From Terriglobia bacterium (GTDB lineage Bacteria; Acidobacteriota; Terriglobia; 20CM-2-55-15), in the NCBI GenBank assembly GCA_963664115.2, contig CAXWPJ010000009.1, positions 928,001 to 992,000 on the forward strand: a stretch of 64,000 nt of DNA, written 5' to 3'. The notes under the pieces were generated by a model, which saw only the letters and a program-made list of their open reading frames with translations, did no database searches and was not told where the DNA came from. A program made the position numbers and the translations under genes. Position 1 is the first letter of the stretch. Every line of letters starts with the position of its first letter. Of the stretch, positions 9,940 through 63,941 are shown in pieces.

Positions 9940-9978
9940 TGGTTTGAAGAACTGACCGAACGGGTGCCGGTGCCATAG
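9940..9978 (+). pseudogene. 3' stub of Ser/Thr kinase (WFEELTERVPVP*)
   Basis: Matches the kinase C-terminus. Confidence 0.8.
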
Positions 9979-9987
9979 TTTTTGAGT

Positions 9988-10004
9988 TCAAGTCCTGTTA
10001 AATC
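9988..10004 (+). repeat. Left half of site D (split by IS1111-like element)
   Basis: TCAAGTCCTGTTAA-ATC; the matching right half resumes at 13396. Confidence 0.85.
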
Positions 10005-10028
10005 GCAGTATGAAAGGACGCCCCTAGA

Positions 10029-11875
10029 CCCAAAACAAGCGCATAACCAGTCCGCCGAGGCCCAGTTCGCGCCGATAGAATTCGAGGCATAGAATCCCGT
10101 TCCCGGATGGCCTGTTCCAGGTATCGAGTTTCTGTTGAATCTGTTTCAGTTCAGCCTCGCTGGTGTTGGACGGTTGACAGAAACCGGGACCTCGATCGCC
10201 CGGGCTCAGAGTCATGATCGGGTCAACATCGCAGAGGCTGACGCAACACATCCACCCCGCGGAACAAGACCGGCAACCACCGGTTCCAGGCCAGGATCCG
10301 GAACAGAATGCGCCGCCCGGTGCGCACGAGTTGGCACGGCACAAGCATGAAAGCGTTCAAGAAGGTTTTGAACTCCATGCGCAGCACGGTTTGCTTCTCA
10401 GCCTGATATTTTTGGCCCCAACGTCCGGTTTCGGGAAGCAGCAATGCAAACCACGCTTTCAGTGTCCAGGCCAGTGACGCGATCACCATGTAGGCCCAGT
10501 TGCTGGTCTGATCTCCGACCGGCATCCGCAACGCCTGAACGCCGTTCTTCAACTGCTCAATGAGATTCTCCTGATTGCACCGTTGATTGGCACGCATCAC
10601 AATCTGGTCGGCCGGATCCGAACGGTTGGTAATGTAGAAGAAGTACCGGATGTCGTCAAACAACACCTGCTCTCCTTTGGCCACCGACAGATTCTTCCGC
10701 ACCACGACGACACGGTAGTCCCGATCGCAGGCTCCGGGTCGATACCGAAACTCGGCCACATCCTCACCCTGCAAGCGGATATTGTCGAAACCGCGCTGCC
10801 GAACGATCTCTTCCTTCACGTTGTCGGGACGTTGGCGCGGTTCGGTCGCCACGTCGTATTTCGCGGGCCGTTCCAGGCGCTTCCACTGGCGCGGCTCCAG
10901 TTCATCGGCCCGGGCCTTCAGGTTCGCCATCGCGTCAATCCCGAATATGAAACCCACCTGCTGGTCGTCCCATCCGTCCAGATGCCGGGTCTGGCTGAAG
11001 TCCGTGTCCCCGCGCAGCAGGATCTGGCGAAACCCCGCATGCCGGCACAATGCGATGGCTTGGTCGAACCGGACCGCGGCTCCTTCATGCGACGGCCGGT
11101 TGCCGCTACGATTGACCAGATACAGCGGTTCGGCGGTGTTGGCCAGCGAGATCATCAGCGGGTGATATCCCCACGTCCCGTCGTAGGCCACGTCCATCCC
11201 TTGCTTGCATTCCCCCGTGGTTTCGGCCAGTGTCCCGTCCGCGTCCAACACCGCTTCTTCGAAAAACGCCGCCGGTTGCTGTCGCCAGACTCCGAGCCGG
11301 ACTTGATTGGTTGCCTCCATCAGACACTCCACGTCGTCGGCCTCGAATCTTCGGCAGAAGTCTCCCGCCGTCGTCGGATCCGGAATCCGTTGCGCTCCCA
11401 GCGCATCCAGATACACCGCATCGTTGCGCCGCAGTTCGATGTCTTCCAGGCACGTTCCTCCGCTCAAGGCGTTGTAGGCGATGTTCAGCACGTGATCCGA
11501 CTCGTGATACGGCAGGTGCCGCTTCAACACATGCACGCCCTTGTCGATGGCTTCGATCAGCCCGGTCCGCCGCGCCACCCGTTGCATCGTCCCGATACCA
11601 CCAACCGATGTGCCCCGCGTCCGCTCTCCCATCTCGTACTGAATGTTGCTCGCCGAAAACATCGGCTCTACCTGATCCGTCCAATGCCGGTCCCCAAGCC
11701 GACGTTCGATTCGCCGCTTGCGGTTCCTCATGTTCTTGCGCGTATAATCGTTCATCTGAAATGCCTCCTTTTCCGAAGAATCTGTTCAAGGTTTTTTTCG
11801 CACGGAGAGGGGGCATTTCGGGTACTTCCGCTCTTATTGCACTATCATTTCCTCGTCAATCACGCTTGTTCAGGG
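10029..11875 (-). mobile_element. IS1380-family element, copy 1 (1847 bp)
   Basis: IRs CCCAAAACAAGCG and CGCTTGTTCAGGG; 6-bp direct repeat CCTAGA on both sides. Confidence 0.92.
10223..11755 (-). CDS. IS1380-family transposase
   Basis: LDADGT, GYHPL, LRGDTDF, R..QENLIEQLK, N.A motifs. Confidence 0.92.
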   Translation of the reverse strand: MNDYTRKNMRNRKRRIERRLGDRHWTDQVEPMFSASNIQYEMGERTRGTSVGGIGTMQRVARRTGLIEAIDKGVHVLKRHLPYHESDHVLNIAYNALSGGTCLEDIELRRNDAVYLDALGAQRIPDPTTAGDFCRRFEADDVECLMEATNQVRLGVWRQQPAAFFEEAVLDADGTLAETTGECKQGMDVAYDGTWGYHPLMISLANTAEPLYLVNRSGNRPSHEGAAVRFDQAIALCRHAGFRQILLRGDTDFSQTRHLDGWDDQQVGFIFGIDAMANLKARADELEPRQWKRLERPAKYDVATEPRQRPDNVKEEIVRQRGFDNIRLQGEDVAEFRYRPGACDRDYRVVVVRKNLSVAKGEQVLFDDIRYFFYITNRSDPADQIVMRANQRCNQENLIEQLKNGVQALRMPVGDQTSNWAYMVIASLAWTLKAWFALLLPETGRWGQKYQAEKQTVLRMEFKTFLNAFMLVPCQLVRTGRRILFRILAWNRWLPVLFRGVDVLRQPLRC

Positions 11876-11960
11876 CCTAGACTGGGGGTTGTTGAGAGAA
11901 GACTCACTCAACAACCTGATCAACGTATACAGCGTTGATCCCAGAAAAGGAGCGTTCGAG

Positions 11961-13025
11961 ATGAAACAAGACAAGTATATGGGTATGGATGTGCACCAGG
12001 CAACGACGGTGGTTGCGGTGAGAGACGGGAGCGGCAAACTGGTGTTTGAAACGATCGTGGAAACCGAGGCGGGGAGTATCACACGGCTGCTGGAGGGATT
12101 GAGTGGGCCGATGCACGTGGGGTTGGAGGAGACCACGCAAGCGGGCTGGTTATCGGAAGTGATCCGGCCGTGGGTGAGCGAGGTGGTGGTGTGCGATCCG
12201 CGACAGAACAAGTGGATGCAAGAAGGGTCGAAGGGGGATAAGCCGGATGCGCGGAAGCTGGCCGAGCTGTTGCGGGTGGGACTGTTGCGCTCGGTGTATC
12301 ACGGCCATGAAGCGACGCGAGAATTGAAGCAACTGGTGCAGGCCTATGACACGTTCCAGTTGGACACGCAACGGGTGATGTCGCGGATCAAAGCGATATA
12401 CCGGGGACGGGGGATCCCGACACCGAAGGACGGAGTCTATCGGCCGAGTCAGCGCGAACAGTGGTTGGAGAAGCTGACCGAGCCGGGGATGAGGCAGCGC
12501 GCCCGATGGTTGTATGCGGAACTGGACCAGGTCCAGTTGCTGCGGAAACAATCCAGAAAAGCGGTGCGAGTGGAGGGCCGGCACCATGAGGCGGTGAAAC
12601 TGCTCGAGACCATTCCACAACTGGGACCGGTTCGGGCGGCACAGATCGTCGCCATCGTGGACACGCCGTACCGATTCCGCACGACACCGCAGTTCTGGAG
12701 CTACAGTGGCCTGGGTGTGGTGACCCACATGAGCGCGGAGTATGAGATGCAGAGTGGACGTGTGGTGCGACGGAGGAAACCGGTGGCCACACGCGGATTG
12801 AATGCGAACTGCAACCGGCGATTGAAGTCGGTGTTCTTCTCAGCCGCGGCATCGGGAAAACAAAGCGAGCCGTATCGGATTTATCTGGAGAGTCTCCAGA
12901 TGCGTGGGATGCGGGAGGAAATGGCGCGGGTCACTCTGGCCCGTAAGATCGCCGCACTGGTGCTGACGCTTTGGAAGAAAGGAGAATCGTTCGATCCAAA
13001 GAAACTGAGCTGGATGACAACATAA
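11961..13025 (+). CDS. IS110-family transposase/recombinase
   Basis: GMDVH, E, K.DK.DA (DEDD RuvC-like domain), TIPQLG, SYSGL, LARK; RBS AAGGAG. Confidence 0.92.
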   Translation: MKQDKYMGMDVHQATTVVAVRDGSGKLVFETIVETEAGSITRLLEGLSGPMHVGLEETTQAGWLSEVIRPWVSEVVVCDPRQNKWMQEGSKGDKPDARKLAELLRVGLLRSVYHGHEATRELKQLVQAYDTFQLDTQRVMSRIKAIYRGRGIPTPKDGVYRPSQREQWLEKLTEPGMRQRARWLYAELDQVQLLRKQSRKAVRVEGRHHEAVKLLETIPQLGPVRAAQIVAIVDTPYRFRTTPQFWSYSGLGVVTHMSAEYEMQSGRVVRRRKPVATRGLNANCNRRLKSVFFSAAASGKQSEPYRIYLESLQMRGMREEMARVTLARKIAALVLTLWKKGESFDPKKLSWMTT

Positions 13026-13089
13026 GCCGTTTCGATCCGTGACCGGTAGAGCCGTACTGAGTCGTTAGACGGAGTCGGAACAACTGAGG

Positions 13090-13217
13090 ATCGAGGGTGA
13101 GGATCTGCACAAGATGTGGTCCCTGGATACGTCCAGAGGACACTTTTAAATCTCTATCCCCCCTCGCACGACCTGAAACAGCGATAGCCTTCGAGGCTCA
13201 GATAGATCCATGGTCGG
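13090..13217 (+). ncRNA. Candidate bridge/seek RNA core (two internal-loop stem-loops)
   Basis: Loop 1 carries ACAAGATG and TTAAATC (match the target site); loop 2 carries AAACAGCGAT and ATAGATC (match the IS junction). Confidence 0.65.
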
Positions 13218-13395
13218 CACATGCCGTCCCATATGCTGTTCAGTTTCTGAATCGACCGTCTTAAAGATGTACGATTTCGCTCCGGATTGCCGGAACCAGG
13301 GCTTCACATAACGGTAGAGGGGCTGGCTGTCACGACAAAAGTGTCCGTCTGGCCGGCCATCGGGGAGCTGTTTCTCTTGACATCCCCTTTCATAG

Positions 13396-13417
13396 ATCAT
13401 CTTGTCGGACCTTGAGA
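13396..13417 (+). repeat. Right half of site D
   Basis: ATCATC-TTGTCGGACCTTGAGA. Confidence 0.85.
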
Positions 13418-13521
13418 TTCCCACCGTCGGAAAGACACGCGCCATTGCATCCCCTAATTCGTCCATTTCCAGTGTTTAACTGGTTCGCCGATCAGATAGA
13501 TGCTTTCGGATCAATTCCGCA

Positions 13522-14250
13522 ATGCCATTAGGAGAACTTCCATATGACCGACTTGAGCCTCTCGTTCGCCACTATCTTTCAACGGAGGAGGACGAATCGA
13601 CAGCCGAACTGATTCAGCGAATGCGAGCTGCCAAGAGACGTGGTTGGCTCACGCGGTCGGAACTCGAGGCAGTATGCTATTGGAAATCGCCAAGGGTAAT
13701 CGGGCATATTCGGGCGAACACGCCGGGGCAGATCCGCTCCGCCACTAGGGTCGCTCTTCGCACTCGAAGTGAACGCCTCCGACTTGAAAACCTCACCCAA
13801 CTAAAAGGCGTGTCGGTTCCCATGGCCTCAGCGGTCCTCATGCTGCTAAATCCTAAACGCTACGGTGTGATCGACATCAGAGTTTGGCAGTTGCTGCACG
13901 AATTGGGAACAATCAAACAGAACGCATCAGGTGTCGGCTTTGGGTTCAACAACTGGTACCAATATCTGATGATAATTCGATATCTCGCAAAGAAACTTAA
14001 CGTCACGGCACGGAATATCGAACGGGCACTCTTCCTGGCACACCAAGGAGAATCAACAGGGCCGGTTATACAAGTAGATCACCTGTTCGACGAGGTGAAC
14101 CACAGCCTATTGAGTCGTCGAATCTGGAACGAAAAAGAGAGGTCAAGTCCTGACAAATCATCTTCTCGGACGTTGAGATTTCATTGCCTGCTATCCCACT
14201 CCTTCTATAGACTGCCCCTAGTATTACTATGTTATGTAGAATCGAAGTAA
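13522..14250 (+). CDS. Hypothetical helix-hairpin-helix (HhH-GPD-like) protein, C-terminus probably frameshifted
   Basis: WKSPR, LKGVSVPMASAVL, YGVIDIRVW, R.IERALF; ORF runs through site F into an IS end, while another frame ends ENQQGRLYK* near 14077. Confidence 0.65.
   Translation: MPLGELPYDRLEPLVRHYLSTEEDESTAELIQRMRAAKRRGWLTRSELEAVCYWKSPRVIGHIRANTPGQIRSATRVALRTRSERLRLENLTQLKGVSVPMASAVLMLLNPKRYGVIDIRVWQLLHELGTIKQNASGVGFGFNNWYQYLMIIRYLAKKLNVTARNIERALFLAHQGESTGPVIQVDHLFDEVNHSLLSRRIWNEKERSSPDKSSSRTLRFHCLLSHSFYRLPLVLLCYVESK
14143..14178 (+). repeat. Dispersed quasi-palindromic site, copy F
   Basis: TCAAGTCCTGACAA-ATCATC-TTCTCGGACGTTGAGA. Confidence 0.9.
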
Positions 14251-15590
14251 AGTTTCCTGAATTTACTGCCGCAACACGTGCAGGAGCCTGTCGACCTCAC
14301 CAGCCAGGGCCGGATCACCCGGAGAATCCGTTCCCAGGTGACACCAGAAGTTTTTTTTGGTGCGCAGGTAAACGGTGAGAATGAACAAGTAGGCAATGGC
14401 GGCCAACACCAGATGGTGGTGAAAGCCTCGCCAGGAACGACCTTCGAAGTGATCCAGGCCTAAATCATCCTTTGAGCGCTGGAAGTATTGCTCGATCTGC
14501 CAACGTGAGCGACTCAATTTGAGACATCGGGCTCGTCTGGGCGCTGTGTGGAAGTGCGCGAGATAGTAATGGTATGGCTCCGCATCGCCAGCCGGCCAGT
14601 CCACCACTAACCAGATCTGTTCGATGGATCCGTTCTGATGACGGAGGTTGTGCTGCAGGAACACTTCAAGCCATGCGATGCGTGTGGTACGGGTTTGACC
14701 GCCGGCTGTGGTCCAGGAGCAATCCTTCCATTGTTTGGAAGAGAGACTGGCCGCCAGCTGCTTTAACGTTTGTGACGGCGGCGTCCCCGGCACGACATGG
14801 CGCCGTTTCTGTTTCATGACCGTCTGAACTTCATGATCCCAGCCTTTGTGCTTGCCCGGATCCACCTGCAGAAAGAACTCCAGATTCAGATCGCGGAGGC
14901 GCTTGCGAAACCGCGCGTTGTCTCCGTAGACGGCGTCTGCCAGAACCGGAGCCGCCGGAATCCCATCCCGCAGAAGATGCTCCATCAGTTCCACCGCGAT
15001 CATGGGCTTCGTGGCGAAGGGGATGTCTTCGGGGACCCCCACCTGGTGACACCGTGCGCGATCACCGGCCCAGATTTCCGGCAGGTAGAGGCGACCGGCT
15101 ACAGGCGCCGCGATCCACCCGTCGCTGACCGCCACCTCCACACTCACCTGGCAGTTGGCTTTTTTACCCACTGCACCACAATACTGACGCGCCACGCCAA
15201 CCGAGTGCCGACCCTGTTTCAGCCAGCCGGTTTCGTCCACGATCCATGCTTCGATCGGTTCCAGGCTTGGAATCACTTCGCGACGTATGGCCGTCCACAT
15301 CGCCTCGTCACTCCATGGACTATCGGTGACGAACTGCTGCAGGCTTTGCGAATTCACCCCCAGCCGCTCCGCCATGGGTTCGATCGACTTGCGTTGGCCC
15401 GGGATCAGCAGGCCTTCGATATATCGTGTCGCCGCAACGCGCCGCTCTGTCCGTCCTACCGTCGCCGTCAGCGAGGTCATAAACCCGGTGAATTCCCTGA
15501 CGCTGTTCTTCCAGATCTTCTGATTCCATTCCATGACCACATCGTAATTCACAAGTCACGGAATCACAAGATTTACTTAACATAGTAATA
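14222..15590 (-). mobile_element. IS701-family element
   Basis: IRs TATTACTATGTTA and TAACATAGTAATA, each bounded by CTAG. Confidence 0.9.
14263..15552 (-). CDS. IS701-family transposase
   Basis: RKSIEPMA, IVDETG..KQG.HSVGV.RQYCG..GK.ANCQ, ADA.YG, RWQIEQ, GLDHFEGRSW.G.HHH. Confidence 0.93.
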   Translation of the reverse strand: MNYDVVMEWNQKIWKNSVREFTGFMTSLTATVGRTERRVAATRYIEGLLIPGQRKSIEPMAERLGVNSQSLQQFVTDSPWSDEAMWTAIRREVIPSLEPIEAWIVDETGWLKQGRHSVGVARQYCGAVGKKANCQVSVEVAVSDGWIAAPVAGRLYLPEIWAGDRARCHQVGVPEDIPFATKPMIAVELMEHLLRDGIPAAPVLADAVYGDNARFRKRLRDLNLEFFLQVDPGKHKGWDHEVQTVMKQKRRHVVPGTPPSQTLKQLAASLSSKQWKDCSWTTAGGQTRTTRIAWLEVFLQHNLRHQNGSIEQIWLVVDWPAGDAEPYHYYLAHFHTAPRRARCLKLSRSRWQIEQYFQRSKDDLGLDHFEGRSWRGFHHHLVLAAIAYLFILTVYLRTKKNFWCHLGTDSPGDPALAGEVDRLLHVLRQ

Positions 15591-15594
15591 CTAG

Positions 15595-17132
15595 GAGCCT
15601 GCGCGGCAGAAGGACCGAAATTGGGCGGATAAAGATCGAAGATAGGTCATGGCACGAACCTATCGGACTTATCGCCCAGAACAAACACTGCTGATACCAC
15701 CGTCGTTGAGAGATTGGTTGGCCGAAGATCACCTGTCGTACTTCATATCGGACGTGGTGGACGCGATGGATTTGAGCGCGTTCGAACAGCGGTATGGAAC
15801 CGACGGTCCGGGCAATCAGGCGTTTGATCCGCGGATGATGGTGAAGGTGTTGATTTATGGGTACGCGACCGGAGTGTTCTCGTCCAGGAAGATCGCGGCG
15901 AAGTTGACCGACGACGTGGCGTTCCGGATGTTGGGAGCGGAGAACTTTCCGGCGCACCGAACGATCTCGGATTTTCGCAAACTGCATCTTGAGGAGTTCG
16001 GAAACCTGTTTGTGCAAGTGGTGATGATGGCGCGGGAAGCGGGACTGGTGAAGATGGGAACCGTGGCGGTGGACGGGACCAAGATGCGGGCGAATGCAAG
16101 CAAACGCAAAGCGATGAGCTATGAACGGATGAAGAAGCAGGAGACCGAATTGGGTGAACAGATTCGGGATCTGTTGAACCGGGCCGAGGCGACCGATGAG
16201 GACGAAGACCAGCGATACGGCAAGGACCGGCGCGGAGACGAACTGCCCGAGGGGTTGTCGACCCGCAAGAAGCGATTGGCCACGATACAGGCGGCCATGA
16301 AGCGGCTCGAAGAACGTCAGATGGCCGCGGACAAGGAAGCGGGACGGAACACCAAAGATCACAAACCCGGATGCGGAAAGAAGCCATTCAAACGTCCCAT
16401 GGGGGAACCTAAACCTACGGCCCAGGACAACTTCACCGACCCGGAAAGCCGGATCATGAAGACCTCCACCGAAGGGTTCCAGCAATGCTACAACGCGCAA
16501 GCGGTGGTGGATTTCCAGGCCCGGATCATCGTGGCAACAACGGTGACTGACAATGCATCGGATGTGGGGCAGTTGGAACCCACGCTGGATGCGTTGAGCG
16601 ACAATCTGGGGGAGCGTCCCGACCGCGTACTGGCCGATGCGGGATATCGATCCGAGTCAAATCTGGGGATGTTGGAACAACGTCAGATTGACGGGTATGT
16701 GGCGATGGGTCGCGAGAAGGATCTCGCCCGTGCCCCACTCCCACCCAAAGACACCGCTGTTGGTCGGATGATGAGAAAGATGAAAACCAAGCGTGGGCGT
16801 GACCGCTACCGGGCCCGAAAGCACATTGGTGAGCCGCCCTTCGGGTGGATCAAGTCGCTGCTCGGATTCCGACAGTTCAGTCTACGCGGTTTGGACAACG
16901 TGACCGGGGAGTGGAATCTGGTCACTCTGGCGGTGAACTTACGACGGATGAATGGGAAGATCGAATGGGCATAATCCGGAAAACCGCAACCCGGCAGACC
17001 CGATACACGGCCAATTGGGGGGTGTCCGTACAACTCTGAATTCGTCGTATCGGAAGAATCGGTCGGTTCTCCTCCGAAGACCCTCTCAAATCCCAATCAA
17101 TCCGAGTTCTTTGCGCTCTGCCGCGCAGACTC
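15595..17132 (+). mobile_element. IS1182-family element
   Basis: IRs GAGCCTGCGCGGCAGA and TCTGCCGCGCAGACTC, flanked by CTAG on both sides. Confidence 0.9.
15649..16974 (+). CDS. IS1182-family transposase
   Basis: SSRKI, P.HRTISDFR, VDGTK..ANAS, TDPESRIMK, YNAQ, ADAGY, F.LRGL. Confidence 0.93.
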   Translation: MARTYRTYRPEQTLLIPPSLRDWLAEDHLSYFISDVVDAMDLSAFEQRYGTDGPGNQAFDPRMMVKVLIYGYATGVFSSRKIAAKLTDDVAFRMLGAENFPAHRTISDFRKLHLEEFGNLFVQVVMMAREAGLVKMGTVAVDGTKMRANASKRKAMSYERMKKQETELGEQIRDLLNRAEATDEDEDQRYGKDRRGDELPEGLSTRKKRLATIQAAMKRLEERQMAADKEAGRNTKDHKPGCGKKPFKRPMGEPKPTAQDNFTDPESRIMKTSTEGFQQCYNAQAVVDFQARIIVATTVTDNASDVGQLEPTLDALSDNLGERPDRVLADAGYRSESNLGMLEQRQIDGYVAMGREKDLARAPLPPKDTAVGRMMRKMKTKRGRDRYRARKHIGEPPFGWIKSLLGFRQFSLRGLDNVTGEWNLVTLAVNLRRMNGKIEWA

Positions 17133-63095: not shown

Positions 63096-63789
63096 AGTTC
63101 AATCGTTCTAACGCGGACAGCAGTGATCGATCCGCGGCTCTCGCCCATTGCGTCATCGGGCGGGCGAGTCCGGGCGAACGAGCGTAGAAAGCGCCACCTC
63201 ACTCGCAGTTGTGAACTTCCTCTCGCAATCGGGCGAATGCCTCGCACCACAACGCCACAGCGCAAAACTTTTACGCATTGCAAGAATTGAATGCGGCGAC
63301 ATACAAGACGAGACCCTCCTGGTTCTTCTGGCAAGTTTGCAGCCACTTTTGAAACTCGAAAACAGAACCCGAAAAGTGAGAAATTGAACTGCGATAGGCG
63401 GCTGTGGTATTTCGAAGGCGAATTCTGATCGATTAAAACTGCACCGCCATTCCTGAAAGTTATTTTCGAATCCGACTCACTCAAATCAGAAGTTTCGAAA
63501 CTTAAATCAGCATGCCTCAAGGTGGCTTCGACATTTTGAAAGATGGCAACACGATTCTGAAACCGCAAACCGTTCCTGAAATACAACAAACCATCCGCGC
63601 ACAGGTGTAAATTAAGAATTTTTACCCAGCTTCGAAGCATGAGTGCCTCGATGAGACAACGGGAGGTCTAATACGACACCTGGGCCCTGAAAAGCAGGTT
63701 GATCGGCGTCTGATCCGTTTAAAGCATACATTGCGAAAGGTTTGTAGAAGCGGCCACGTGGTAGGGACGCGACTTGTGATGCCGGCTGA

Positions 63790-63825
63790 TTCTCACTGTC
63801 CGACAATCTTGTCGGACGTTGAGAA
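63790..63825. repeat. Site copy K (two right arms head-to-head)
   Basis: TTCTCACTGTCCGACAA-TC-TTGTCGGACGTTGAGAA. Confidence 0.8.
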
Positions 63826-63941
63826 ATCCCGTATTCAGTGAAAAATTGTTATCTAGTTCCAGATAATTGTAGTTATCCCGCCGAATACTGACAACGTAAG
63901 ACACGTTCTAAATAACATGACATCCGTGCTATCGTGGTAAC

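Follow-up and report, generated by a model that had tools for sequence, protein, structure and literature searches.

An IS1380-interrupted IS110-family element with a predicted guide RNA in a 40-bp repeat of a Terriglobia bacterium

What brings a mobile element to the middle of one particular repeat, and what is that repeat? Both questions are raised by a 64,000-nucleotide stretch of a Terriglobia bacterium (Acidobacteriota, 20CM-2-55-15; assembly GCA_963664115.2, contig CAXWPJ010000009.1, positions 928,001 to 992,000 of the forward strand; hereafter the window, in whose coordinates features are given), where an insertion sequence (IS) of the IS110 family lies inside a copy of a 40-bp repeat. 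We are confident in the following overall answer: a 1541-bp IS110-family element, interrupted here by an IS1380 element, carries a predicted bridge/seek RNA of two loops, through which its DEDD recombinase is likely directed to the centre of the repeat, and the repeat is itself likely a recombination site bordering mobile gene modules.

Comparison of genomic copies resolved the 3394 bp at 10005–13398 into two elements, an IS110-family element of 1541 bp and an IS1380 element of 1847 bp nested in it, 24 bp in from its left end. A preliminary description had taken this interval for a single element whose removal rebuilds the target; its excision does restore an intact site, but the nested element had been overlooked. 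Two transposase genes are present, one of the IS1380 type (open reading frame 10223–11755, minus strand) and one of the IS110 type (11961–13025, plus strand). The IS1380 element occupies 10029–11875 on the minus strand with a 6-bp target duplication (10023–10028 and 11876–11881); its transposase matches PF13701 and scores above the cut-off of NF033539, and the genome holds 73 near-full copies among 81 matches, nearly all with CTAG flanks. The IS110-family element has seven full copies. Since the six without IS1380 are all 1541 bp long, and the IS1380-free joint is present in three of four public DNA contig sets, the IS110-family element consists of 10005–10028 plus 11882–13398, with the remainder of its left end at 11882–11960. 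The whole interval might alternatively be mobile as a single 3.4-kb composite, the IS110 element carrying IS1380. An eighth left end (C12:161239) does have IS1380 at the identical position at another target site, and the window copy retains both ends; however, the C12 copy lacks the right part, has a foreign right flank and shows swapped IS1380 flanks, only one complete composite exists among the seven full copies, and the preference of IS1380 for CTAG makes independent insertion or an assembly join possible. We therefore consider composite mobility unlikely.

All seven full copies were found at the same bond and in the same orientation of one 40-bp repeat, of which a weight matrix detected 193 copies in 4.9 Mb and none in the shuffled plus strand. 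No full copy sits at an unrelated target, a possibility that the preliminary description had raised against itself, and the abundance it had supposed for the site is borne out by this direct count. On the plus strand of the window the 6-bp spacer is split, its first half lying with the left arm at 9986–10004 (TC core at 10003–10004) and its second half with the right arm at 13399–13419; upstream, 9940–9978 is a remnant of the 3′ end of a gene of the Ser/Thr kinase-PD40 family that precedes many site copies (family D7). For the copy at C11:1095–2635, the one of the seven for which an empty allele was available, that allele (C6:45054) matches both 240-nt flanks with 100% identity, which fixes the element ends and indicates no duplication beyond the core. 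Relatives at two further loci (L146, 94%; L189, 97%) are likewise inserted in the repeat site.

The recombinase (354 aa) matches PF01548 and PF02371 above cut-off and has D10, E56, D93, D96 and S258 intact; the DEDD residues and catalytic serine are invariant in nine of nine sequences, and the protein was also aligned to ISPa25 and IS4321. Its gene is followed by 373 bp of non-coding DNA, versus approximately 100 bp upstream, and this downstream region holds two predicted units on the plus strand. A predicted target-binding loop (13092–13166; outer stem, two guides and inner hairpin in an alignment-based structure) contains the right target guide ACAAGATG at 13109–13116, the complement of the target top strand, and the left target guide TTAAATC at 13146–13152, which includes the core. 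A predicted donor-binding loop (13169–13216) contains a strong left donor guide, ATAGATC (13202–13208), and a partial right donor guide, AAACAGCGAT (13176–13185), with an 8/10 match. These motifs lie where the preliminary description had quoted them. The 14-mer defined by the target guides, allowing at most one mismatch, occurs ten times in the genome, eight of them within the repeat family. The guide is also predictive of site occupancy within the genome: T stands at arm position 13 in 7/7 occupied versus 41/142 empty sites, and G at arm position 24 in 6/7 versus 42/142.

Do the guides change together with the targets? Of 301 genomes in the class, 44 contained relatives of the element (the named ones are acidobacterial), and 22 element families with a readable scaffold and both ends readable were kept, loci without an end or scaffold being omitted; guide positions were set from the scaffold, independently of the targets. 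The left target guide matched its cognate target at 4.06 of 5 non-core positions versus 1.26 for non-cognate targets, and the right target guide at 5.81 of 7 versus 2.21 (0/20,000 permutations for each); one family (G108) was mis-anchored by the rule, yet is retained among the 22. The same rule applied to 49 new metagenome loci kept 28 (13 had no scaffold and 8 no anchor), and these held-out loci gave 5.93/7 versus 3.0 for the right guide (n = 28, 14 distinct guides) and 4.41/5 versus 1.74 for the left (n = 17, 10 distinct). The covariation check proposed in the preliminary description thus came out positive, target guides tracking their targets in both sets. Among four close families whose donor ends are identical, the guides differ, and each fits its own target. 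Two further loci bear on the guides. In a relic at C12:530997–531600 the transposase is decayed and the guide scaffold and right end are intact, its right guide fitting its own flank at 7/8 positions; one DNA run (X8) contains a related element with several changes in or near the target guides (window 13115–13146).

These data also bear on the idea that recognition of the palindrome, or of a host protein on it, is a property of the transposase and that the short non-coding matches are chance. Recognition of a protein-bound site has been proposed for IS1202-family targeting of Xer sites (bioRxiv 10.1101/2022.12.17.520857). In its favour, the palindrome is also entered by elements without guide RNAs (IS30, with 21 of 26 ends beside an arm), and the single-sequence fold of the non-coding region is not significant. 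Against this, the guides change with the targets in the families and held-out loci alike, the guide predicts the occupied site variants, and same-genus relatives that are 64–70% identical use other targets despite the presence of the site in their genomes. We consider protein recognition alone very improbable.

A consensus of 21 relatives contains the two units, with all four guides mostly in loops. In this alignment 96.4% of cells were paired, two-sided changes occurred in 8 of 20 pairs, and covariation was 0.311 versus 0.129 for shuffled and at most 0.066 for slid alignments, the structure having been derived from the same alignment that was used for scoring. The inner hairpin of unit 1 was recovered when subgroups were folded separately. 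Folding, suggested earlier as a check, gave a divided answer: the two units emerge from the alignment alone, and the single-sequence fold is no better than shuffles (z −0.89). An Rfam scan of the window returned no model for this RNA; its sole match is a group II intron fragment (RF02005) at 2062–2282, approximately 220 bp upstream of a degenerate site.

Target and donor share a 2-nt core, which is TC in this element and AC in most relatives; in 22/22 families the left guide follows the core base. The ATC core first proposed was not upheld, as the common core is TC and close relatives have GTC in the target versus ATC in the donor. The left donor guide is exact in 21/22 families. For the right donor guide, the 8/10 letters noted earlier are present, but the long pairing is not supported (5.09/10 cognate versus 4.63 non-cognate); the match consists largely of invariant A-rich letters, and 8/10 overstates it because only the two core-adjacent bases are consistently paired. 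The subterminal inverted repeat (10009–10017 in the left end, 13386–13394 in the right end at 13377–13398, whose donor core is 13397–13398) is perfect over 9 bp here and measures 9–11 bp in 17/22 families, and TTGAC stands at the right end in 21/22. Joining the ends gives, as already described, TTGACA (13377–13382, predicted −35 box), 17 nt, and CAGTAT (10006–10011, predicted −10 box); the subterminal repeat and the conserved TTGAC support such a putative junction promoter. No strong plus-strand promoter was found in the linear element.

By analogy with IS621 and ISEc11, excision would turn the element into a circle whose joined ends may form a sigma-70-type promoter driving both recombinase and RNA. 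In the RNA, loop 1 would base-pair to each strand of a 13-bp target, loop 2 would do so to the joined ends, and strand exchange would occur at the TC core, with no duplication beyond it. Insertion into the spacer would inactivate the repeat site until excision. Because IS1380 separates the −10 box from the gene in the window copy, this copy probably cannot be expressed from the junction and would rely on the six intact ones. RNA, circle and activity are predictions from sequence.

Several observations weigh against an RNA-guided IS110-family element as described. The recombinase scores 122 against the NCBIfam IS110 model NF033542, below the cut-off of 140. The register of unit 2, the donor loop, varies between subgroups, and part of the right target guide is base-paired in the single-sequence fold (unpaired probability approximately 0.6). 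Pairing of the right donor guide is weak, with a permutation result inflated by five near-identical relatives; more generally, kin are non-independent in the 22-family, donor-guide and held-out tests, and the held-out test dropped 21 of its 49 loci. In one study, four metatranscriptome contig sets contain sequence near-identical to the 3′ part of the gene and the non-coding region, covering these only partially at a depth of approximately 2–4, and such contigs carry no strand, ends or level and may be DNA. The circle junction was not found in four of four DNA contig sets, in which contigs drop rare forms. A separate joint was observed in two of the four RNA contig sets of this one study. It connects 13152, where the left target guide ends, to 12951 (L003:1371 and 1572), in a donor-end-like ATC-GC stretch located 202 bp back within the transposase gene. 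The joint was not found in four DNA sets; self-targeting recombination, a circular RNA or a library artefact could each explain it.

Which known family does the element belong to? Of the broad features of IS110 elements, the domains, DEDD plus serine, one target and orientation, no duplication beyond the core and covarying guides are present, and, judged by sequence, it has the layout and guide order of IS1111-type seekRNA elements while coming from a divergent acidobacterial clade. The IS1111 assignment of the preliminary description stands for the downstream position of the guides with the top-strand guide first, and not for the protein: identity is 22% over 152 aa to ISPa25 and 19% over 268 aa to IS4321, the two named IS1111-type references compared (the tree had no IS110-group outgroup), and the GL-P----SG motif is altered, its serine kept and followed by A or S. 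The best match in a plasmid collection was 29% identical, and a phage collection gave one 25% match. An AlphaFold model from a 9-row alignment (mean predicted local distance difference test score 54) was set aside.

Like the IS1111 seekRNA elements ISEc11, ISKpn4, ISPst6, ISPa25 and ISPa11, the element combines a DEDD recombinase with a long downstream non-coding region, a top-strand guide before the bottom-strand guide, subterminal inverted repeats, a (here predicted) junction promoter, and one target in one orientation with no duplication beyond the core (PMC11187229). It departs from them in its 9-bp inverted repeat, in a target that is neither attC nor REP (repetitive extragenic palindrome), and in lacking the GL-P----SG motif. 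Subterminal repeats of IS1111 elements are usually 11–13 bp long and lie 7 and 3 bp from the ends (PMC11187229), and a range of 7–17 bp is also given (PMC11208160); the present 9-bp repeat falls within the latter and below the former, and its inner 8 bp fit the 7 + 3 spacing. With the IS621 bridge RNA it shares two stem/internal-loop/hairpin units, target then donor loop, a 2-nt core, guides overlapping at the core, and DEDD plus serine (PMC11208160, PMC11208158). Unlike IS621, whose core is CT, its RNA lies in the right end, the guide order is reversed, the core is TC or AC, and the right donor pairing is short. A close relative apparently forms row 19 of the table in Fig. 1C of PMC11208160, without an ISfinder name.

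RNA guidance of this kind is already known, and the target repeat is the more interesting object. It consists of approximately 16-bp imperfect inverted arms around a spacer, which is 6 bp long in 156/178 sites and altered in 22/178; 12 sites have 3-bp spacers. Among 193 sites, 142 have the spacer ATCATC and 21 ACGACA/C. Neighbours of the same class are direct repeats in 97/110 cases, whereas mixed-class neighbours are inverted in 34/35. Kinase 3′ ends are followed by the left arm within 50 bp in 88/131 cases, and kinase starts are preceded by an inverted site in 31/49. A 25-nt pattern matched in 41 of 301 genomes, with 135, 71, 32, 31 and 8 matches in five of them versus at most 3 for a reversed control; between genomes the arms are constant and the spacers vary, and there too the repeat borders one- or two-gene modules. 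Among duplicated stretches of at least 300 bp, nine pairs begin at a site and 14 terminate at one, ten of the latter being another IS. The spacer was identical in 23/23 flank-swapped pairs. Across 146 sites no compensatory change between arms was seen, which favours protein-bound half-sites. The repeat was not described in the literature searched, including the accessible part of PMC3469429, subscription papers lying mostly outside the coverage.

The preliminary description had taken targeting by the element as a sign that the site is functional. Targeting does not imply this, because IS110 elements also target REP repeats; function is suggested instead by other indirect evidence, namely neighbour orientation, spread across genomes, module breakpoints and kinase-end linkage. 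The geometry of a tyrosine-recombinase site is present, with inverted arms, an asymmetric 6-bp spacer and spacer identity between partners, and we put the chance that the repeat is a site of this type (arm, 6-bp spacer, arm) at about even. Two findings count against it: no cognate enzyme was found among the recombinase candidates tested, and arm polymorphisms do not fix the crossover point, since four of nine downstream-sharing pairs differ in the right arm though their spacers are identical. Fused right arms and 3-bp-spacer sites are joins made in the spacer; back-to-back right-arm fusions with 2- and 4-bp spacers occur in the window at 63786–63829 and at C2:253776.

We compared the repeat with three known site types. 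The attC analogy did not hold, as AAC of the AAC/GTT core triad occurs in 6 and GTT in 69 of the 146 sites and no site lies near the integron integrase. A true integron integrase does occur at C9:710574–715714, with apparent cassettes of its own and unlinked to the repeat. A dif or pdif identity was rejected because the host dif is single-copy and different, only one arm partly resembling its XerC side; a dif search in a second family gave chance-level matches only. REP sequences and their doublets (REPINs) have as hallmarks a conserved tetranucleotide beside a hairpin and a flanked gene for a REP-associated tyrosine transposase (RAYT). Here there is no conserved 4-mer, and one site lies near one of two Y1 transposase genes.

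Two published settings nevertheless resemble this one in part. The ISAba32/ISAjo2 subgroup of IS1202, associated with Xer sites and pdif modules, is likewise drawn to an arm/6-bp/arm site bordering one- or two-gene modules; those are DDE elements that insert 5–6 bp beside the site with no RNA guide (bioRxiv 10.1101/2022.12.17.520857), whereas the present element inserts within the spacer. Their target differs as well, in that the present site is unlike the host dif and has no XerD-type arm. The IS110 elements IS621 and ISPa11 also target a multi-copy extragenic imperfect palindrome, REP, as ISPpu9 reportedly does. Unlike REP targets, the present repeat has neither a conserved flanking tetranucleotide nor arm covariation, and shows directional arrays, two spacer classes and module breakpoints.

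Among candidate site enzymes, a 316-aa tyrosine recombinase was tested and not established as such; it was not found in three site-bearing genus-mates, and site-like matches lie at 5 of 30 homolog loci. Its single gene (C5:52192–53139; locus L073) lies between two inverted ACGACA-type sites, outward of each of which a kinase start follows, and C5:52060–53269 could be an invertible segment. The 306-aa integrases beside sites are parts of IS91-type elements and were not established as the site enzyme, and the integron integrase, Y1 transposases and serine resolvases showed no convincing link.

With the element as described, could the target instead act as a hairpin of single-stranded DNA, serving an integrase in the manner of attC or an HUH transposase in the manner of REP? 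Both strands fold with two bulged bases (−9.6 and −9.9 kcal/mol), the one-base arm offset recurs in genome G243, and the right arm differs in those four of nine downstream-sharing pairs. Likewise, an IS91-plus-integrase element starts approximately 25 bp from a clear site in five of six copies, one of the two Y1 genes is approximately 300 bp from a site, and sites form tail-to-tail pairs 17 or 107 bp apart, which REPIN doublets resemble. However, compensatory arm changes and a conserved flanking tetranucleotide are missing, AAC and GTT have the counts given above, the integron integrase has no nearby site, and the spacer is identical in all flank-swapped pairs and takes fixed forms in two classes. 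Given the conserved two-bulge hairpin, a single-strand substrate retains some probability, and we judge it improbable next to a double-strand recombinase site.

Alternatively, the repeat may be a protein-binding operator or a terminator-like kinase gene end that was passively duplicated, rearrangements being caused by insertion sequences. The tight linkage to kinase ends given above agrees with this, as do the ten of 14 upstream-only pairs that are the second IS itself, the IS30 copies with mismatched spacer halves, and the 22 sites of altered spacer length. In contrast, duplicated modules of at least 300 bp begin exactly at IS-free sites in nine pairs, many sites adjoin unrelated genes in four other genomes, class and orientation of neighbours are coupled (97/110 direct, 34/35 inverted), and the arms are fixed while the spacer varies between genomes. 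This origin appears to us slightly less probable still than the hairpin substrate.

The repeat is entered by further elements. A second, canonical IS1111-type element with approximately eight near-full copies (e.g., C12:332431–333900) inserts in the arm on the opposite strand; it has 11-bp subterminal repeats, and its homolog in genome G123 is 48% identical to ISPa25. Its downstream region, read by eye, holds 8-nt and 6-nt matches to its own target, and in G123 (L189) both IS110 element types occupy one site. An IS30-family element of 1249 bp enters the exact spacer centre of both spacer classes with a 2-bp duplication (five full insertions; e.g., C12:23337 and C2:317948). The IS91-plus-integrase element occurs in either orientation (C1:92986 and five identical copies). 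In genome G243 and its relatives, elements of the present clade target sites of this type that have other spacers.

Taken further, the repeat may be the crossover site of an undescribed, integron-like module-shuffling system of acidobacteria built around a Ser/Thr kinase family, on which IS30 and two unrelated RNA-guided IS110 lineages, each programmed with a guide of its own, converge, related guides in another family having been re-aimed to the same site type with other spacers; we rate this broader proposal at somewhat under an even chance. The element itself represents a divergent, uncharacterised bridge-recombinase clade and offers a natural reprogramming series (7-nt and 8-nt target guides with a TC or AC core), making the clade a candidate that could be used for programmable DNA insertion. 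Of greater value is what the guide targets: in several acidobacteria this repeat adjoins variable gene modules, and insertion sequences of at least three types enter it. Should the repeat prove to be a recombination site, it would mark a gene-shuffling system not found described in the literature searched. Next to the element in the window, two adjacent DDE transposases (PF13546 and PF05598) occupy 14263–16974, right after another site at 14141–14180.

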